This document shows, one piece after another, positions 1 through 12,986 of a stretch of 64,000 nt of DNA. Each line of letters begins with the position of its first letter. Position 1 is the stretch's first letter. A program made the translations under genes and the position numbers. Origin of the DNA: a virus (Duplodnaviria; Heunggongvirae; Uroviricota; Caudoviricetes); IMG/VR virus record IMGVR_UViG_3300027126_000001. One strand, given 5' to 3'. The notes under the pieces were generated by a model that did no database searches, was not told the DNA's origin, and was given only the letters and a program-made list of their open reading frames with translations.

Positions 1-357
1 AAATAGGAATTTGTTTTCATAATATGTATGAAGCTTTTTATTTGGAGTAAAGATAAGAATTTCTCTTGAGAATTCCAACTGTTTACCTTCTTTTATTAAG
101 CCTTTTATTTCTGAGTGAGAACCATAGTATGTTTTCCAGTCAGATTCTTTTCTAACTATTTTAGATTTACTAGCTCTTTTATCTGTTATTAAAGCCAGTT
201 CTTTTTTACCTAAAGCTTTTTTTGTAACAGAAATAAGTTGTTTCTTTCCTAAGTATTTTCTACCGGTTGGTAGATGTGTTACTTCGTAGATAAACCCGAA
301 AATGTCTTCGGGCATATCTGATAGTTCTTTAATTTCTTTTTCTTTATATAACCACAT
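1..357 (-). CDS. GIY-YIG-type endonuclease-like protein, N-terminal part (ORF runs off the window start)
   Basis: ATG at 357-355. 119 codons stay open to position 1. The translation MWLYKEKEIKELSDMPEDIFGFIYEVTHLPTGRKYLGKK contains GFIY...(9 aa)...YLG, the GIY-YIG signature. Not in the ORF track because it is truncated by the window edge. Confidence 0.55.
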   Translation of the reverse strand, partial: MWLYKEKEIKELSDMPEDIFGFIYEVTHLPTGRKYLGKKQLISVTKKALGKKELALITDKRASKSKIVRKESDWKTYYGSHSEIKGLIKEGKQLEFSREILIFTPNKKLHTYYENKFLF

Positions 358-372
358 TTTTATTTTGTTTTA

Positions 373-1950
373 TTAGAATAATGCATTCCAAATTGTTCCG
401 TTATAGTAGTATAGTACGCTAGATCCTGCTGAACCTGATGCTATTATCATTCCTTCTACCGGTGTTGGTGTTGTTGTTCTTACTGCTAACTGTAAGATAT
501 CTTTTAACATTAACGAACCTGTTACTTGGAATGTACTTCCTGATGCAAATACTAAATTTGATCTTGAGCTGTTTGAGGTTCCATTTCCTATTATGAAAGC
601 AGATTGTGCTGATGATGATATGTTGTACTGGCCTTGAACGTGTTGGTATGAACCTGATGCTACTGTTGCTAATCCTTCAGCATGAGATGCTAATCCTATA
701 GCGTCTGTACTAGCCCCTTCTGCATGTGAATAATTTCCTACTGCTGCGTTGTTGAATCCTTCAGCGTGTGAGTAAGATCCTGATGATACCGATAGCCATC
801 CTTCTGCATGAGAGTAATAGCCTGTAGCTGTTGTGCTGCGTCCTTCAGCGTGAGAGTAGTCTCCTAATGCTGTTGTATCGTTTCCTTCTGCATGTGAATA
901 AGATCCTGATGCTACTGTAGAGAATCCTTCAGCGTGTGAGTAGTCACCTAGTGCTACTGTATTCGCTCCTTCAGCATGTGAGGCAACTCCTGATGCTTGT
1001 GTTTGCTGTCCTTCAGCGTGTGAATAGTTGCCTAATGATTTTGTATTAGTCCCTTGTGCATGTGAGGCACCCCCTCTTGCTTCTGTATACGATCCTTCGG
1101 CGTGTGAGTGACTTCCTGATGCTATTGCCCCATTCCCTTCTGCATGTGAATATGATCCCGACGCTATTGTTACATTCCCCTCAGCATGTGAGCTATTTCC
1201 GACTGCAGTGGTACCGTACCCCTCAGCATGTGATCCTTCTCCTCCTGCCGTCGTTTCAATCCCTTCTGCATGAGATGCCTGATCCACTGTTACTGTCTGG
1301 TAACCTTCAGCATGAGAATAGTCTCCTACCGCTCTTGTGTCTCCTCCCTCTGCATGTGAGTACGATCCGGTTGCTCTTGTATTCTCGCCCTCTGCATGTG
1401 AGTAGTATCCTTTTGCAATAGTAATACTTCCTTCGGCATGTGAATATGATCCTGACGCTATGGTACCAAATCCTTCGGCGTGAGATGCTACCCCTACTGC
1501 CCCTGTGCCGGATCCTTCTGAGTGTGCGTAATTGGCTGTAGCTGTGGTTGTAAATCCTTCAGCATGGGAGCCGGTTGCGGTTGCCTGGCCATTTACCCCT
1601 TCTGCATGCGAAAATAATCCTGATGCTATAGTGCTGTAACCTTCTCCATGTGAAAACCTGTCATTTGGTGCAGAAATACTTCCACTTCCGTTTACTAGTG
1701 ATCCTGATATCTGAACTTGACTATCTGTATAGGTCATTGCTGCACTTCCTTCCCATTGTGATATGGTTGGGATTGTTAATGACATGCTTGCTGGTGCAGG
1801 TATATCTCTGTCTTCTATTATACTTCCTGTAGTGAATAGTGTTATTGTTCCACTTGAATATGATGCAGAGTAGAAGTATGATGAAAAGTTGGTATCTAAC
1901 TGATCAAATGTAAGTGCTGATCCTGTTACGTTTCTTAAAGTGATTGCCAT
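373..1950 (-). CDS. Tail fibre / receptor-binding protein carrying ~20 tandem 14-aa repeats (SHAEGxxTxAxGxY), YadA-head / hep_Hag-like
   Basis: 525-aa ORF. Residues ~110-440 are a near-perfect 14-residue periodic repeat (YSHAEG-x2-T-x-A-x-G-x), which is a 42-bp tandem repeat at DNA level (~640-1640). Gly/Ser/Thr-rich, and last gene of the structural block. Confidence 0.6.
   Translation of the reverse strand: MAITLRNVTGSALTFDQLDTNFSSYFYSASYSSGTITLFTTGSIIEDRDIPAPASMSLTIPTISQWEGSAAMTYTDSQVQISGSLVNGSGSISAPNDRFSHGEGYSTIASGLFSHAEGVNGQATATGSHAEGFTTTATANYAHSEGSGTGAVGVASHAEGFGTIASGSYSHAEGSITIAKGYYSHAEGENTRATGSYSHAEGGDTRAVGDYSHAEGYQTVTVDQASHAEGIETTAGGEGSHAEGYGTTAVGNSSHAEGNVTIASGSYSHAEGNGAIASGSHSHAEGSYTEARGGASHAQGTNTKSLGNYSHAEGQQTQASGVASHAEGANTVALGDYSHAEGFSTVASGSYSHAEGNDTTALGDYSHAEGRSTTATGYYSHAEGWLSVSSGSYSHAEGFNNAAVGNYSHAEGASTDAIGLASHAEGLATVASGSYQHVQGQYNISSSAQSAFIIGNGTSNSSRSNLVFASGSTFQVTGSLMLKDILQLAVRTTTPTPVEGMIIASGSAGSSVLYYYNGTIWNALF
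640..1640 (-). repeat. 42-bp in-frame tandem repeat array (~20 copies) inside the tail-fibre gene
   Basis: Recurrent gcatgtga / gcgtgtga (SHAEG codons read on the minus strand) every 42 bp. Confidence 0.75.
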
Positions 1951-1956
1951 GGTGTT

Positions 1957-2916
1957 TTATATGTCTATTTTAACAATTATTGTCATTTCTGTATTTGCAG
2001 GTTTTGGTACTGGTCTGTTTAATTTTCCAACTGCTATTAACTCATTTGCATCGTTATACAGTCCTACTGTAGTAATGTATGGTGTAAAACTACTTCCTGT
2101 TACGTTATTGTTCAACCTTCCATCGCTAATACTTGCAGAGGTTGAAAAGATATTCCCTTCATTATCATATACAGTTTTTAACGAACTTGTAAGTGCTGAT
2201 GGGTTGTATGTAAAGTTGTTTTCAAATTCCCTCACCTTGCAGTGATAGTTGTGGGTGAATATCGGTTGACTTGATTTGAATGTAAGCTGTACACCTTGTA
2301 CTGTACCTTTACCTCCCATTGCTGTACTGAATAGTGTAGCATATGTTAGGTCTGTTACTACTACTGTCCCATGTGGGTAGATAATATCTCCTACATACGT
2401 TCTAGGAGAGCTTCCAGATAAGTACAATAACCCTTCCCCGTCATCTAATATTGTTGCTGATGTTGGTATTATTACTACTTCTGCTGGTCTTGGGCGTCTT
2501 CCACCAAAATCTAGTGGTGATAGGTAACCTTGTAGAACTGCACCTTCTGCTAATGCACCTAGTTGTTGGAGTATCCCTGAATCAGCTTTAAGCATAAATC
2601 CGTCTTGCGGTTTTATTGCTGTACCGAATAATGTCCTTGGTATATTTAATTGAAAAGATCCTGTTGTCAGGTTTCTTGATTGTGACTGGTATAGTGTGGT
2701 TTGGTTGTAGTAGTCGTACTTATGGCTTGTTATGTTTCCTAATACCTTTGTCGGATAGTATAGTTGCTGTAAGCTATTTAACGCTGTCCCTGTTACATTT
2801 GGATTGTATGTTATTGAGTACGCACTAAACGCACTCCCTGTTACTGCCCAGGTCTTGTGGGCAGTATAGGTTGTGATAAAAGCATCTTGTTTGTTTAGTC
2901 TCTTGTAAGTGCTCAT
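1957..2916 (-). CDS. Tail fibre / structural protein sharing a conserved C-terminal module with the next gene
   Basis: 319 aa. C-terminus TTVGLYNDANELIAVGKLNRPVPK matches the C-terminus of the 2920-3930 product (TTVGLYNDSNDLLAVAKLSRPLLK). T/S/N/G-rich, as fibre proteins usually are. Confidence 0.5.
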   Translation of the reverse strand: MSTYKRLNKQDAFITTYTAHKTWAVTGSAFSAYSITYNPNVTGTALNSLQQLYYPTKVLGNITSHKYDYYNQTTLYQSQSRNLTTGSFQLNIPRTLFGTAIKPQDGFMLKADSGILQQLGALAEGAVLQGYLSPLDFGGRRPRPAEVVIIPTSATILDDGEGLLYLSGSSPRTYVGDIIYPHGTVVVTDLTYATLFSTAMGGKGTVQGVQLTFKSSQPIFTHNYHCKVREFENNFTYNPSALTSSLKTVYDNEGNIFSTSASISDGRLNNNVTGSSFTPYITTVGLYNDANELIAVGKLNRPVPKPANTEMTIIVKIDI

Positions 2917-2919
2917 TCA

Positions 2920-3930
2920 TTAATAATCAAGCTTGATTCTTACTAACGCTTCTTTTGTAAAATCTTTCAGTAAAGGTCTTGATAGTTTTGCAACTGCTAA
3001 CAAATCGTTACTATCGTTGTAAAGCCCTACTGTTGTCATATATGATTGTGGACTGTTAACCATTACATCCCATCTTAATTCTCCTGATCCTGTTATGTTC
3101 GATGGATTTGTTGAATAGTTAAATTCACTGTTTCTTACTCGGATAAATACGAAATTTGAAGAAATAGTCTCTTCAGAGCTTAACGAAAAATTACCTCCCT
3201 GTGCCAACATGCTAAAGAATATGTCTAGGTTATTAGGGGTTGCACTGTCGTTTGTTTCGTTTAGTACTGCTGCTAATCCTCCTCCTGCTGCTGATGCTTT
3301 TAGAGCTTCTCCGTTTATTACTACGATCCCTACATCTGGTAAGAATTTTCCATACGATCCTGAGTTGGGTGTAAAACCTGTTCCCCCGTTGTATGAAACT
3401 CCGTTCGACCCGCTTATAATATCATAAACTCTTCCCGAGTCTGTATAAGATACTGTTGTCTGGTTAGCGCTATTATCAGTTAGTTTTATTATATTAGATC
3501 CTGATGCTAATGTTAGGTTAAATGTACCTGGTTTTAGCTTCTCTTTATAACGAGATCTGTTTATAGATAGTATATATACTGAGTTTGGAGTAATCGTACC
3601 GAAGGTAAAATCTGTATTCTCATCTCCGTTGACCAATGTTCTGTACTGTCCGTAGGTTACTGCTGAGGGTGATTTTCCTGCAATTTCGCTTATATTTTCT
3701 GAACCTGATCCTACCCTATTGCCATATGCTGCTGCAAATTGTACTGTTGTTCCGGTAGTGCTAGTATTTAGGTTGTATACATTATAGTAGTAGTTTCCTG
3801 TGTTACTTGATACCTGTGATGATGCTGTAAAGAAGCTTGTAAGTGTTGTTGCTTGGTTTGTCCAGGCAGGTGCTACTACTGCTTCTGCACTTATTGTGAT
3901 ATCTTCTGGGTCTAATCTTTTGAATGACAT
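2920..3930 (-). CDS. Tail fibre / structural protein, paralog of 1957-2916 at the C-terminus
   Basis: 336 aa, shared C-terminal ~35 aa, 3-nt spacing to neighbouring genes. Confidence 0.5.
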   Translation of the reverse strand: MSFKRLDPEDITISAEAVVAPAWTNQATTLTSFFTASSQVSSNTGNYYYNVYNLNTSTTGTTVQFAAAYGNRVGSGSENISEIAGKSPSAVTYGQYRTLVNGDENTDFTFGTITPNSVYILSINRSRYKEKLKPGTFNLTLASGSNIIKLTDNSANQTTVSYTDSGRVYDIISGSNGVSYNGGTGFTPNSGSYGKFLPDVGIVVINGEALKASAAGGGLAAVLNETNDSATPNNLDIFFSMLAQGGNFSLSSEETISSNFVFIRVRNSEFNYSTNPSNITGSGELRWDVMVNSPQSYMTTVGLYNDSNDLLAVAKLSRPLLKDFTKEALVRIKLDY

Positions 3931-11186: not shown

Positions 11187-12986
11187 TTATAGTGTTGTTA
11201 TTCTTCCTTTAATATCTGTTGTTGGAAATTTTACCTCAAAAATCATAGGATCATATGAAGGGTATACCACATTGTTCCTAGTAGCTCCATTGATATCGTA
11301 TCCGTATTGTGAATAGTTTCCTCCTGTTAGGTTATTTACCTGTATCTTCTGTACTGTCTGTACCCCTGGTACCTGATCTAGTAATGTGTATACACTTGAT
11401 AGGTTTATTGGTTGATTTATATTCCATTTTTTAATACTGAAGTAGTCTTGAAGTAGAGTGTTACATTGTAGTAGTACGTCTCTACCTAAGAAGTTAGGTC
11501 GAACCACTACGTCATACTGCACCTCTATATTTACAATAAATGCATCCTTAATATTAATAGCATCTGTCAATATCATATACTCTGCTAAATACCTTTTCAG
11601 ATTATTCTTCAACGAAATTGGAGCTGTTGTAAGGTTGCTATTTAGATCGTATGCTAATGTATAAAGTGATAGTGATAGAGGATTACTATCTAATATACTA
11701 TCTGTACTTGAGTTTGGATTTGTTAACTGGTCCTGAGTTATATATACTTTGCTTACTGTTCCGTACTTTGCTGGTAGTGATAATGCTCTAACTGTATAAT
11801 CCTGTAAAGTTACTGCTCTTCCCTGTTCGTTAAACGCTCTTAAGGAGTTCTGTCTTAACTCTTCCACTGTATCTCCATCTCTTCCTCCTGTTGCTGCTTC
11901 GGGGTTATTAAATGTTAGCGAAGTTGTTGGATCAGCTATTGGGGTTAGTAAATTTGTAACAGTGTTTGCCGGTACATTTGAAGATACTCCTCCTCCTACC
12001 AAGTATTTGATTGTTAGAGTTGTATTTGAAGGAGCCAATCCATAAGTCTGTGTATGTAAGAAGTTAGAAGGATCGTATGCATAATCGATTCTAGAAATTC
12101 CTTGAGAAGTTCCTAATCCTACATTGGTTGGGTCCGGTGTCAATACACTATCATCTTGTCCTGTAATTCCTGCTCCAAACTGTATTTGCAGTTCTCCTGT
12201 TGAGTTAAATCTTGTTACAAATCTTCTAGGAACTTTTCGAAGTACCAAATTATACGGCACCAAACCGCTATCCGAGCTTGTGTTTTCGTCATCTACAAAT
12301 ATAGTATCTTGCCCTAAAAACGGTACTTCGTACCAGATATTACTAGCACTATCTGTAATTGATAAGATACCTACTACGTTTGTATCGTTAATATTTATTG
12401 TTTTAAATTTTTCTGCAGCTGTAATTTGCTGTGTGATTGTCTTTACTTCTCCTGAATATGCTTTTCTAGTTTTTGTTAGTCTGAACTGGTTTGGAGATGT
12501 TCCTGCTAAGGATTCTATTACTACTTCTGTCGGATCGTAGGAGCTTGAAAATGTAAAGTCTATAGGAGTATCTATATAGAATCTAGATTGACCTGATGTT
12601 GTTGAGCTTAGCTGTGTGCCTGCTGCTATTTGTAGGGCTTGTGACCAGTCTGGTTGACCTGTTACCGCACCTACAAGGTGTGATACTTCTATATCTACTT
12701 CAGAAACTGTTGTAACTTTAGGACGATATCCCATCATATACGCTAAGTTATAGAGATTTACAGGGTCCTTAGCATACTGTATATATGTTTCCTGTAATTG
12801 TAAATCTTGGTAGAAAGATAAAATATCTCCCACATAAGCTGCCATTTCTATAAACATCATACCTGGTGAGGTTGGTGTAAAGTCGTTGTATGTGTTTGGG
12901 AAATAATTCTTTGCGTACTCGATTAATTCAGATCTTAAATCTGTAAAATCTCTTCCTGTATATTTTATATCTCTATCTTGAGCCAT
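11187..12986 (-). CDS. Baseplate J-like (T4 gp6 / P2 gpJ family) protein
   Basis: 599 aa. N-terminus MAQDRDIKYTGRDFTDLRSELIEYAKNYFPNTYNDFTPTSPGMMFIEMAAYVGDILSFY is characteristic of the Baseplate_J family. Preceded by a gp25/W-like gene sharing nt 12986. Confidence 0.55.
   Translation of the reverse strand: MAQDRDIKYTGRDFTDLRSELIEYAKNYFPNTYNDFTPTSPGMMFIEMAAYVGDILSFYQDLQLQETYIQYAKDPVNLYNLAYMMGYRPKVTTVSEVDIEVSHLVGAVTGQPDWSQALQIAAGTQLSSTTSGQSRFYIDTPIDFTFSSSYDPTEVVIESLAGTSPNQFRLTKTRKAYSGEVKTITQQITAAEKFKTININDTNVVGILSITDSASNIWYEVPFLGQDTIFVDDENTSSDSGLVPYNLVLRKVPRRFVTRFNSTGELQIQFGAGITGQDDSVLTPDPTNVGLGTSQGISRIDYAYDPSNFLHTQTYGLAPSNTTLTIKYLVGGGVSSNVPANTVTNLLTPIADPTTSLTFNNPEAATGGRDGDTVEELRQNSLRAFNEQGRAVTLQDYTVRALSLPAKYGTVSKVYITQDQLTNPNSSTDSILDSNPLSLSLYTLAYDLNSNLTTAPISLKNNLKRYLAEYMILTDAINIKDAFIVNIEVQYDVVVRPNFLGRDVLLQCNTLLQDYFSIKKWNINQPINLSSVYTLLDQVPGVQTVQKIQVNNLTGGNYSQYGYDINGATRNNVVYPSYDPMIFEVKFPTTDIKGRITTL

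Follow-up and report, generated by a model that had tools for sequence, protein, structure and literature searches.

The closest described relatives of the protein discussed here are the heads of trimeric autotransporter adhesins, namely BpaC (7O23), BoaA (3S6L) and YadA (1P9H), which have the same period of 14 residues and the same pattern of small residues (S, A, G / S or T, A, G). For BpaC, it was proposed that the addition or removal of 14-residue layers tunes both the head's length and its binding surface (PMC9543794). YadA-like rolls are already known from phage fibres: Pfam, CDD and UniProt have labels for them, and they have been reported from marine phages. The tail fibre of a marine pelagiphage combines a conserved N-terminus with a variable, distal C-terminal YadA-like part; the latter falls in a stretch with low metagenomic recruitment, and its role was taken to be host recognition (Mizuno et al. 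2014, PMC3909814). That phage is a T7-like podovirus whose fibre has a different N-terminal domain from the one described below, and unit counts and junctions were not analysed in that study. Here, we describe a gene of this kind in a 64,000-nucleotide stretch of DNA from a virus of the class Caudoviricetes (IMG/VR record IMGVR_UViG_3300027126_000001), referred to below as the window. We consider it likely that the gene, located on the minus strand at 373..1950, encodes the modular tail fibre of an Immutovirus-like myovirus, from the group of Flavobacterium phage immuto.

The original prediction that positions 373-1950 constitute a tail-fibre gene is borne out by one exact open reading frame (ORF), placed at the end of the baseplate module and starting with the N-terminus of an immuto fibre. 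The core of the product is a strictly regular array, in which the motif H[AGSV][EQ]G occurs 25 times with a spacing of exactly 14 residues and zero indels. The alignment of units column by column yields the consensus Y-S-H-A-E-G-x-x-T-x-A-x-G-x, exactly as predicted, with S in 23/25 units, A in 22/25, G in 25/25, T in 20/25, A in 21/25 and G in 21/25, while columns 7, 8, 10, 12 and 14 are highly variable. The identity of the protein with itself at a lag of 14 residues reaches 0.548, versus 0.105 +/- 0.016 (maximum 0.170) over 2,000 shuffles, and drops to 0.045 and 0.048 at lags of 13 and 15. The tandem 14-residue arrangement and its strict period were thus anticipated correctly, but the number of units is 25 rather than about 20, and the array extends slightly further than residues ~110-440 (Table 1). 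Within the 64-kb window, the 525-residue fibre gene is the sole gene carrying such an array or the fibre N-terminal motif.

Table 1. Coordinates of the tail-fibre gene, its parts and the adjoining gene in the window
Feature	Position	Strand	Details and basis
Tail-fibre ORF	373..1950	minus	525 aa (amino acids); stop codon 373-375; ATG start; ORF list, Pfam, PHROG, synteny
N-terminal region	1657..1950	minus	residues 1-98; first 30 residues MAITLRNVTGSALTFDQLDTNFSSYFYSAS, conserved and presumed to serve baseplate attachment
Array of 25 in-register 14-residue units, predicted left-handed parallel beta-roll	607..1656	minus	residues 99-448; periodicity, AlphaFold, Foldseek
Degenerate last unit and conserved cap	508..648	minus	residues 435-481, YQHVQGQYNISSSAQSAFIIGNGTSNSSRSNLVFASGSTFQVTGSLM; many invariant columns in 19 aligned homologues
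C-terminal tip, predicted small three-stranded beta-meander	376..507	minus	residues 482-525
Recombination junction relative to L004	1136..1154	minus	19-nucleotide stretch within unit 13, in its SYSHAEG-coding motif
Distal cassette (units 13-25, cap and tip), differing from L004	376..1135	minus	flanks 90-100% identical
SegE-like GIY-YIG gene, downstream, cut by the window edge	1..357	minus	Pfam SegE_GIY-YIG, 82.1 bits versus a cut-off of 25

The relationship of the array to the heads of trimeric autotransporters is supported by sequence profiles and by a predicted structure. The Pfam YadA_head profile (PF05658) matches the protein with 36.4 bits against a cut-off of 25 (E 6.2e-09), and a sequence search at E <= 0.05 recovers, among solved structures, nothing but trimeric autotransporter adhesin heads (BpaC 7o23, 3.5e-12; BoaA 3s6l, 2.3e-7; also CbpF and YadA 1p9h). 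In the AlphaFold monomer model, built from an alignment of 60 sequences, the mean predicted local distance difference test (pLDDT) score is 85.6 and most block means within the array are 95-99; every 14 residues, a strand of five residues and then one of two recur. In the sequence, the S/A/G pattern of small residues expected at inward-pointing positions occurs twice per turn. Foldseek found nine matches in the PDB at E <= 0.001, all of them heads of trimeric autotransporters, the best being BpaC 7o23 (E 3.8e-14, template modelling score 0.74 on the target); BoaA (3s6l_E) superimposes with a root-mean-square deviation of 1.3 A across 114 columns, and EibD and YadA match more weakly. Among predicted viral structures (BFVD), the top matches are phage proteins named 'LbR_YadA-like domain containing protein' or 'YadA-like head domain-containing protein'. 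The handedness of the roll follows only indirectly, from superposition. Taken together, these data support the predicted fold of the array as a YadA-like left-handed parallel beta-roll, the YadA-head or hep_Hag-like architecture that had been suggested initially, and the structure prediction, proposed as its check for a trimer and made here for the monomer, returned a confident roll. The only low-confidence stretch within the predicted roll comprises residues 292-299 (window 1054..1077, minus strand; pLDDT < 50), at the boundary of units 14 and 15 (ARGG-ASHAQG) with Gln for the usual Glu; the roll may kink or be irregular there. In BFVD, the model also matched predicted giant-virus proteins with YadA-like rolls (from Klosneuvirus, Pithovirus, Fadolivirus and Marseillevirus), some of them annotated as 'collagen triple helix repeat protein'.

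The family to which the fibre belongs is large. At least 7,977 proteins were recovered at E <= 1e-5 among 8,000 scored candidates; most of these homologues carry a precomputed PF05658 match, and some additionally have C-terminal Peptidase_G2 or Peptidase_S74 chaperone domains. The homologues that were aligned share the N-terminal motif, an array of variable length and the conserved cap, and the C-terminal modules that come after the cap are quite different. The invariant columns of the cap in 19 aligned homologues are kept whatever domain follows; the family consensus reads YQHVQGQYNISSSAQSAFIIGNG..RSNLVFASGS.FQVTGSL, and the cap motif F[IVL][IVLH]GNG is present in 51 of 120 homologues.

With trimeric-autotransporter heads as the only matches among named families and solved structures, the gene could be taken for a bacterial trimeric autotransporter adhesin, acquired as phage cargo or mis-binned from a host, and its product would then not be a virion protein; the probability of this is, in our estimate, very small. 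Pfam reveals no anchor, neck or stalk domain and the C-terminus is a 44-residue beta-meander, while the full-length NCBIfam autotransporter models score 16-36 bits against cut-offs of 600-3000. The structural model has no helix of four or more residues and hence no coiled-coil stalk. The N-terminus, MAITLRNVTGSALTFDQLDTNF, is without a hydrophobic core, as read from the sequence, and corresponds to the fibre motif of immuto gp167 and gp168; moreover, dozens of viral contigs have the gene flanked by baseplate genes on one side and by a phage GIY-YIG gene on the other. Adhesin cargo was rejected as an explanation, with the anchor, the stalk or neck and the signal peptide all missing. In contrast to the autotransporter heads it resembles, the window protein is predicted to be a structural protein of a phage.

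The genomic context points to a tail fibre. The fibre gene lies in a tail and baseplate module with a Baseplate_J protein at 11187..12986, and the DNA of the neighbouring baseplate region is ~77% identical to that of Flavobacterium phage vB_FspM_immuto, a 160-kb myovirus belonging to the genus Immutovirus. The order of genes agrees with that of the baseplate wedge and fibre genes of immuto and holds in more than 40 viral contigs. As in other fibres, a conserved N-terminal region is combined with variable distal parts. Over the first 30 residues, identity to the N-terminal end of immuto gp167 ('tail fiber protein', QQO91846.1) is 70%, and gp168 and nearly all fibre genes of relatives at this position begin in the same way. 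A tblastn search with the N-terminal 98 residues against annotated phages gave no match at E <= 0.001; the conserved motif comprises just ~30 residues, and the link to gp167 consequently rests on pairwise comparison. The motif presumably attaches the fibre to the baseplate. The whole ORF matched PHROG 25468, a family of unknown function, at 1.9e-71, and the exact 525-residue protein is not on record in public assemblies.

The other end of the protein resembles a different gene of the same phage. Over its last 284 residues, it shares 61% identity with the C-terminal portion of immuto gp170 ('tail spike protein', QQO91849.1), which has the same SHAEG array, cap and tip, and 42 of the 44 tip residues are identical. 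In immuto, however, the array has 11 units and ends a protein of 1,053 residues, compared with 25 units in 525 residues in the window, and the locus of immuto comprises four fibre or spike genes instead of a single one. The window protein is thus a compact mosaic, with an N-terminus of the gp167 type joined directly to a long array and a tip of the gp170 type. The annotation of gp170 would also be in line with an enzymatic tailspike, i.e., a depolymerase, which we find scarcely credible for the window protein: the predicted roll is the left-handed, 14-residue adhesin type and not a right-handed, pectate-lyase-like helix, and no catalytic domain was detected by Pfam, PHROGs or NCBIfam. This candidate was rejected on both counts. 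Some relatives (L047-L053, L052; immuto, L002:1456-8820) have two to four consecutive fibre genes without SHAEG units, all of them beginning with the common N-terminal motif (MAIKLRTDQSVE, MAILLRTDKGSK); in the window phage and in most of the other relatives, just one fibre gene is present at the locus.

The original prediction also described the array as a long, near-perfect 42-bp tandem repeat in the DNA, and this description does not hold. The 42-nucleotide (nt) units share a mean pairwise identity of 58.7% (maximum 78.6%), neighbouring units (0.587) are no closer to each other than units at a distance of seven (0.595), and no exact word longer than 21 nt is repeated inside the array. The BpaC gene differs in this respect, as its DNA repeats are almost identical (PMC9543794). 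Tandem Repeats Finder reported just 9.8 copies with 63% matches. At a lag of 42 nt, identity is 65-67% at codon positions 1 and 2 and 44% at position 3; this low value at position 3 indicates that the periodicity is held at the protein level. Each of the conserved Ser, His, Ala, Glu and Gly residues is encoded by two to four synonymous codons, and from this and from the divergence of the DNA units it follows that selection on the protein maintains the repeat. The units in the window are old and diverged in their DNA; the gene is expected to be stable and not a slippage hotspot.

Unit number does vary among relatives. We fetched 73 viral loci by using the upstream 319-residue gene as an anchor, plus one JGI contig encoding the protein P0103; in most of these loci the fibre gene sits between a homologue of the 319-residue gene and the GIY-YIG gene. 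The 27 complete syntenic genes encode 0, 11, 12, 13, 14, 17, 18, 20, 22, 24, 25, 27, 29 and 33 to 44 HxEG units, in some cases split into two or three arrays. Genes with zero units (L046 and L058, 165 residues) keep the N-terminal motif and a small tip-like C-terminal domain, and P0103 (L003) has the N-terminus and tip of the window fibre but 12 units. When the closest pairs are compared, most internal gaps measure a multiple of 14 residues (14, 28, 56). Exact repeats of 40-94 nt, offset by exact multiples of 42 nt, are present in six relatives (L026 repeats 94 nt at offset 126 and 72 nt at offsets 42 and 84), and these are recent in-register duplications or conversions. The proposed comparison of repeat counts among related phages therefore gave a range from 0 to 44 at the same locus, not an invariant number: the number of units is evolutionarily plastic in the lineage, and the window gene itself shows no recent event. 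In L032 (9139-11073), the fibre ORF is broken into fragments of 105 residues (3 units) and 200 residues (13 units), which could reflect a frameshift, a pseudogene or an assembly error within the array.

These differences bear on whether the fibre gene is an unstable DNA repeat, the copy number of which shifts within populations by slipped-strand mispairing and which may collapse in assemblies. The wide spread of unit numbers, the predominance of whole-unit indels, the near-perfect fresh duplications in some relatives (up to 94 nt in L026, at offsets of 42, 84, 126 and 168 nt) and the fragmented ORF of L032, if it stems from assembly or a frameshift, would all be in keeping with such instability. 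Slippage requires long near-identical tracts, however, and head-to-tail tracts of this kind, the mark of a hypermutable repeat, are absent from the window gene, in which neither the most similar units nor the third codon positions come near identity; exact words of at most 21 nt, moreover, will not collapse a modern assembly. We regard this explanation as improbable, and neither slipped-strand gain and loss of units nor assembly collapse, both raised in the original prediction, is to be expected in the 525-residue fibre gene.

The comparison with the closest relative, L004, a 167-kb contig (IMGVR_UViG_3300046003_006038) with an upstream gene 91% identical in protein, suggests another route of change. 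The L004 fibre gene occupies the same position and has the same N-terminal motif, but it encodes 20 units and its distal half and tip are different. The DNA of L004 and the window is ~98% identical through unit 13, to nt 815 of the gene; most 60-nt windows across the upstream gene and these first 815 nt are 97-100% identical, and the first 587 nt of the fibre gene contain only 8 mismatches. Directly after the SYSHAEG-coding motif, from gene nt 816, mismatches become dense, and sliding-window identity, with gaps, falls to 13-72%. With unit totals of 25 versus 20, the rest of the array is alignable only with gaps; close to the stop codon and in the gene downstream, identity is back at 90-100%. 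Such an abrupt break between conserved flanks indicates that the distal cassette was exchanged, with one crossover inside the conserved SHAEG-coding motif. The simple gain or loss of units envisaged originally does not describe the difference from L004, relative to which the whole distal half has been replaced at a junction inside the array. Two further patches of reduced identity to L004 were seen: window 1299..1363 (minus strand; gene nt 588-654, units 8-9), with 14 mismatches, may be a short inter-unit conversion tract, and window 2468..2581 (minus strand) in the 319-residue gene, 63-77% identical within flanks of 93-100%, may be a second small mosaic or conversion patch.

Exchange of this type has a conceptual parallel in the gp37/gp38 locus of T-even phages, in which recombination at short conserved motifs reportedly swaps adhesin specificity (a finding attributed to Tetart, Desplats and Krisch, 1998). 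The concept of short conserved crossover motifs in a variable fibre gene is the same, but the fold and the motifs are unrelated, and in the window fibre the crossover motif is the repeated structural unit itself.

The features described above suggest how the fibre may be built and diversified. The short N-terminal motif common to the fibre genes of the group would dock the fibre on the baseplate, and the 25 stacked 14-residue layers would form a rigid trimeric shaft. The array is most probably a rigid, rod-shaped homotrimer about 10-12 nm long, as the rise per layer is roughly 4-4.8 A in the description of BpaC (PMC9543794); the same calculation gives up to about 21 nm in relatives. The conserved cap would close the roll, and the 44-residue beta-meander tip may nucleate folding or trimerisation, contact the receptor, or do both. 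The array probably acts as a length-adjustable, recombinable shaft, gaining and losing layers mostly as whole units, with the conserved SHAEG-coding motif as a crossover point for swapping the distal fibre half between phages. Whole-unit changes and distal exchange would alter both reach and binding surface and might thereby affect host range, with specificity possibly set by the variable positions that the distal layers expose, by the tip, or by both.

A related possibility is that the beta-roll itself is the receptor-binding surface, that the distal variable positions set specificity, and that the tip is only a folding or trimerisation nucleus. The heads of YadA, UspA1 and CbpF are the model for this, and the solved relatives do bind through the head, as seen in the collagen-binding domain of YadA and in CbpF bound to CEACAM. 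The high variability of five columns in each unit and the exchange of distal layers along with the tip fit this arrangement, as does the near-identity of the tip in immuto gp170 while the arrays are only about 61% identical. Conversely, the zero-unit fibres of L046 and L058 retain the two ends without any roll, and the large and varied C-terminal domains of other family members look like receptor-binding or chaperone modules. We see receptor binding by the roll as possible, though not probable.

Several observations weigh against the interpretation of the protein as a modular fibre with an exchangeable distal half. Its presence in the virion, its binding of a receptor and its trimeric state are all inferred. 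The N-terminal 98 residues were modelled at low confidence (pLDDT block means 38-68). The tip has no recognisable fold: a sub-model of the last 119 residues (16-sequence alignment) has a mean pLDDT of 65, with 83-92 over the last 40 residues, and found no structural match in the PDB (all E > 3). The tip is also nearly identical in immuto gp170, which is no less compatible with a structural role than with one in specificity. Finally, blastn against 76 fetched loci at >= 80% identity revealed no donor of the distal cassette; the search matched only the proximal part of L004, 101 nt inside the array of immuto and short stretches at the ends of the query.

The viral units carry a nearly invariant His-Glu pair. 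Among 2,070 interior units from 120 homologues, picked only by the presence of flanking anchors, His is conserved in 99.8%, Glu in 99.0%, the structural Gly in 99.2% and Ala in 85%. The solved autotransporter heads differ at the equivalent places, with V, I, T, S or variable residues; according to the sequence matches to solved heads, no solved structure contains the SHAEG motif. In the literature searched, neither SHAEG nor its variants were discussed or explained, and the full-text matches were unrelated. The register of the motif is ambiguous owing to the pseudo-symmetry of the unit every 7 residues. In the alignment with BpaC, His and Glu fall on positions 5 and 7, which are trimer core positions in the BpaC head (PMC9543794); each layer would then place its three Glu close to the axis and its three His where the chains meet, and such a core could hold metal ions or protons. 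In the alignments with YadA and BoaA, the half-repeats of which can be distinguished, SHAEG lies on the outer strand and T-x-A-x-G on the core strand, with x positions rich in T/I/V and S/V/T/L; the His-Glu pair would then be an exposed charged zipper. As these alignments conflict, neither register is preferred. The iron-histidine sites in the tip of T4 gp37 are a loose parallel to a His-Glu core. It is a tentative and rather doubtful proposal that viral SHAEG rolls form a distinct YadA-like subclass with a continuous ionisable His-Glu ladder, on which fibre stability or triggering could depend through pH or ions.

The surroundings of the fibre gene showed some further features. The SegE-like gene is present at the same position in nearly all related contigs, including two (L042, L044) without a fibre gene there; given this constant position, it looks fixed rather than a mobile homing endonuclease. 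Its homologue in immuto, gp171, is annotated as 'NAD synthetase', probably wrongly. Upstream of the fibre gene, the genes at 1957..2916 and 2920..3930 (both minus strand) are tandem paralogues sharing a C-terminal domain (34% identity over 113 residues, E 1e-14; motif TTVGLYND.N.L.AV.KL.RP), with no Pfam or PHROG match for either. Plus-strand ORFs of 52-121 residues (e.g., 1056..1421) overlap the array in antisense and have Leu-rich, low-complexity translations; they were rejected as genes, being by-products of the repeated codons with no support. Predicted promoter and terminator sites in window 1..3000 are fewer than in shuffled sequence.

As a gene annotation, the 525-residue fibre is routine. 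It corrects, though, a tempting misreading, as a perfect protein repeat need not mean an unstable DNA repeat. The invariant His-Glu pair, which occurs in at least 7,977 proteins, offers structural work an inexpensive and clearly defined subject. The natural series of 0 to 44 layers at one locus in these Flavobacterium-type phages, with one junction mapped to 19 nt, is suited to the study of how shaft length and module exchange relate to host range.

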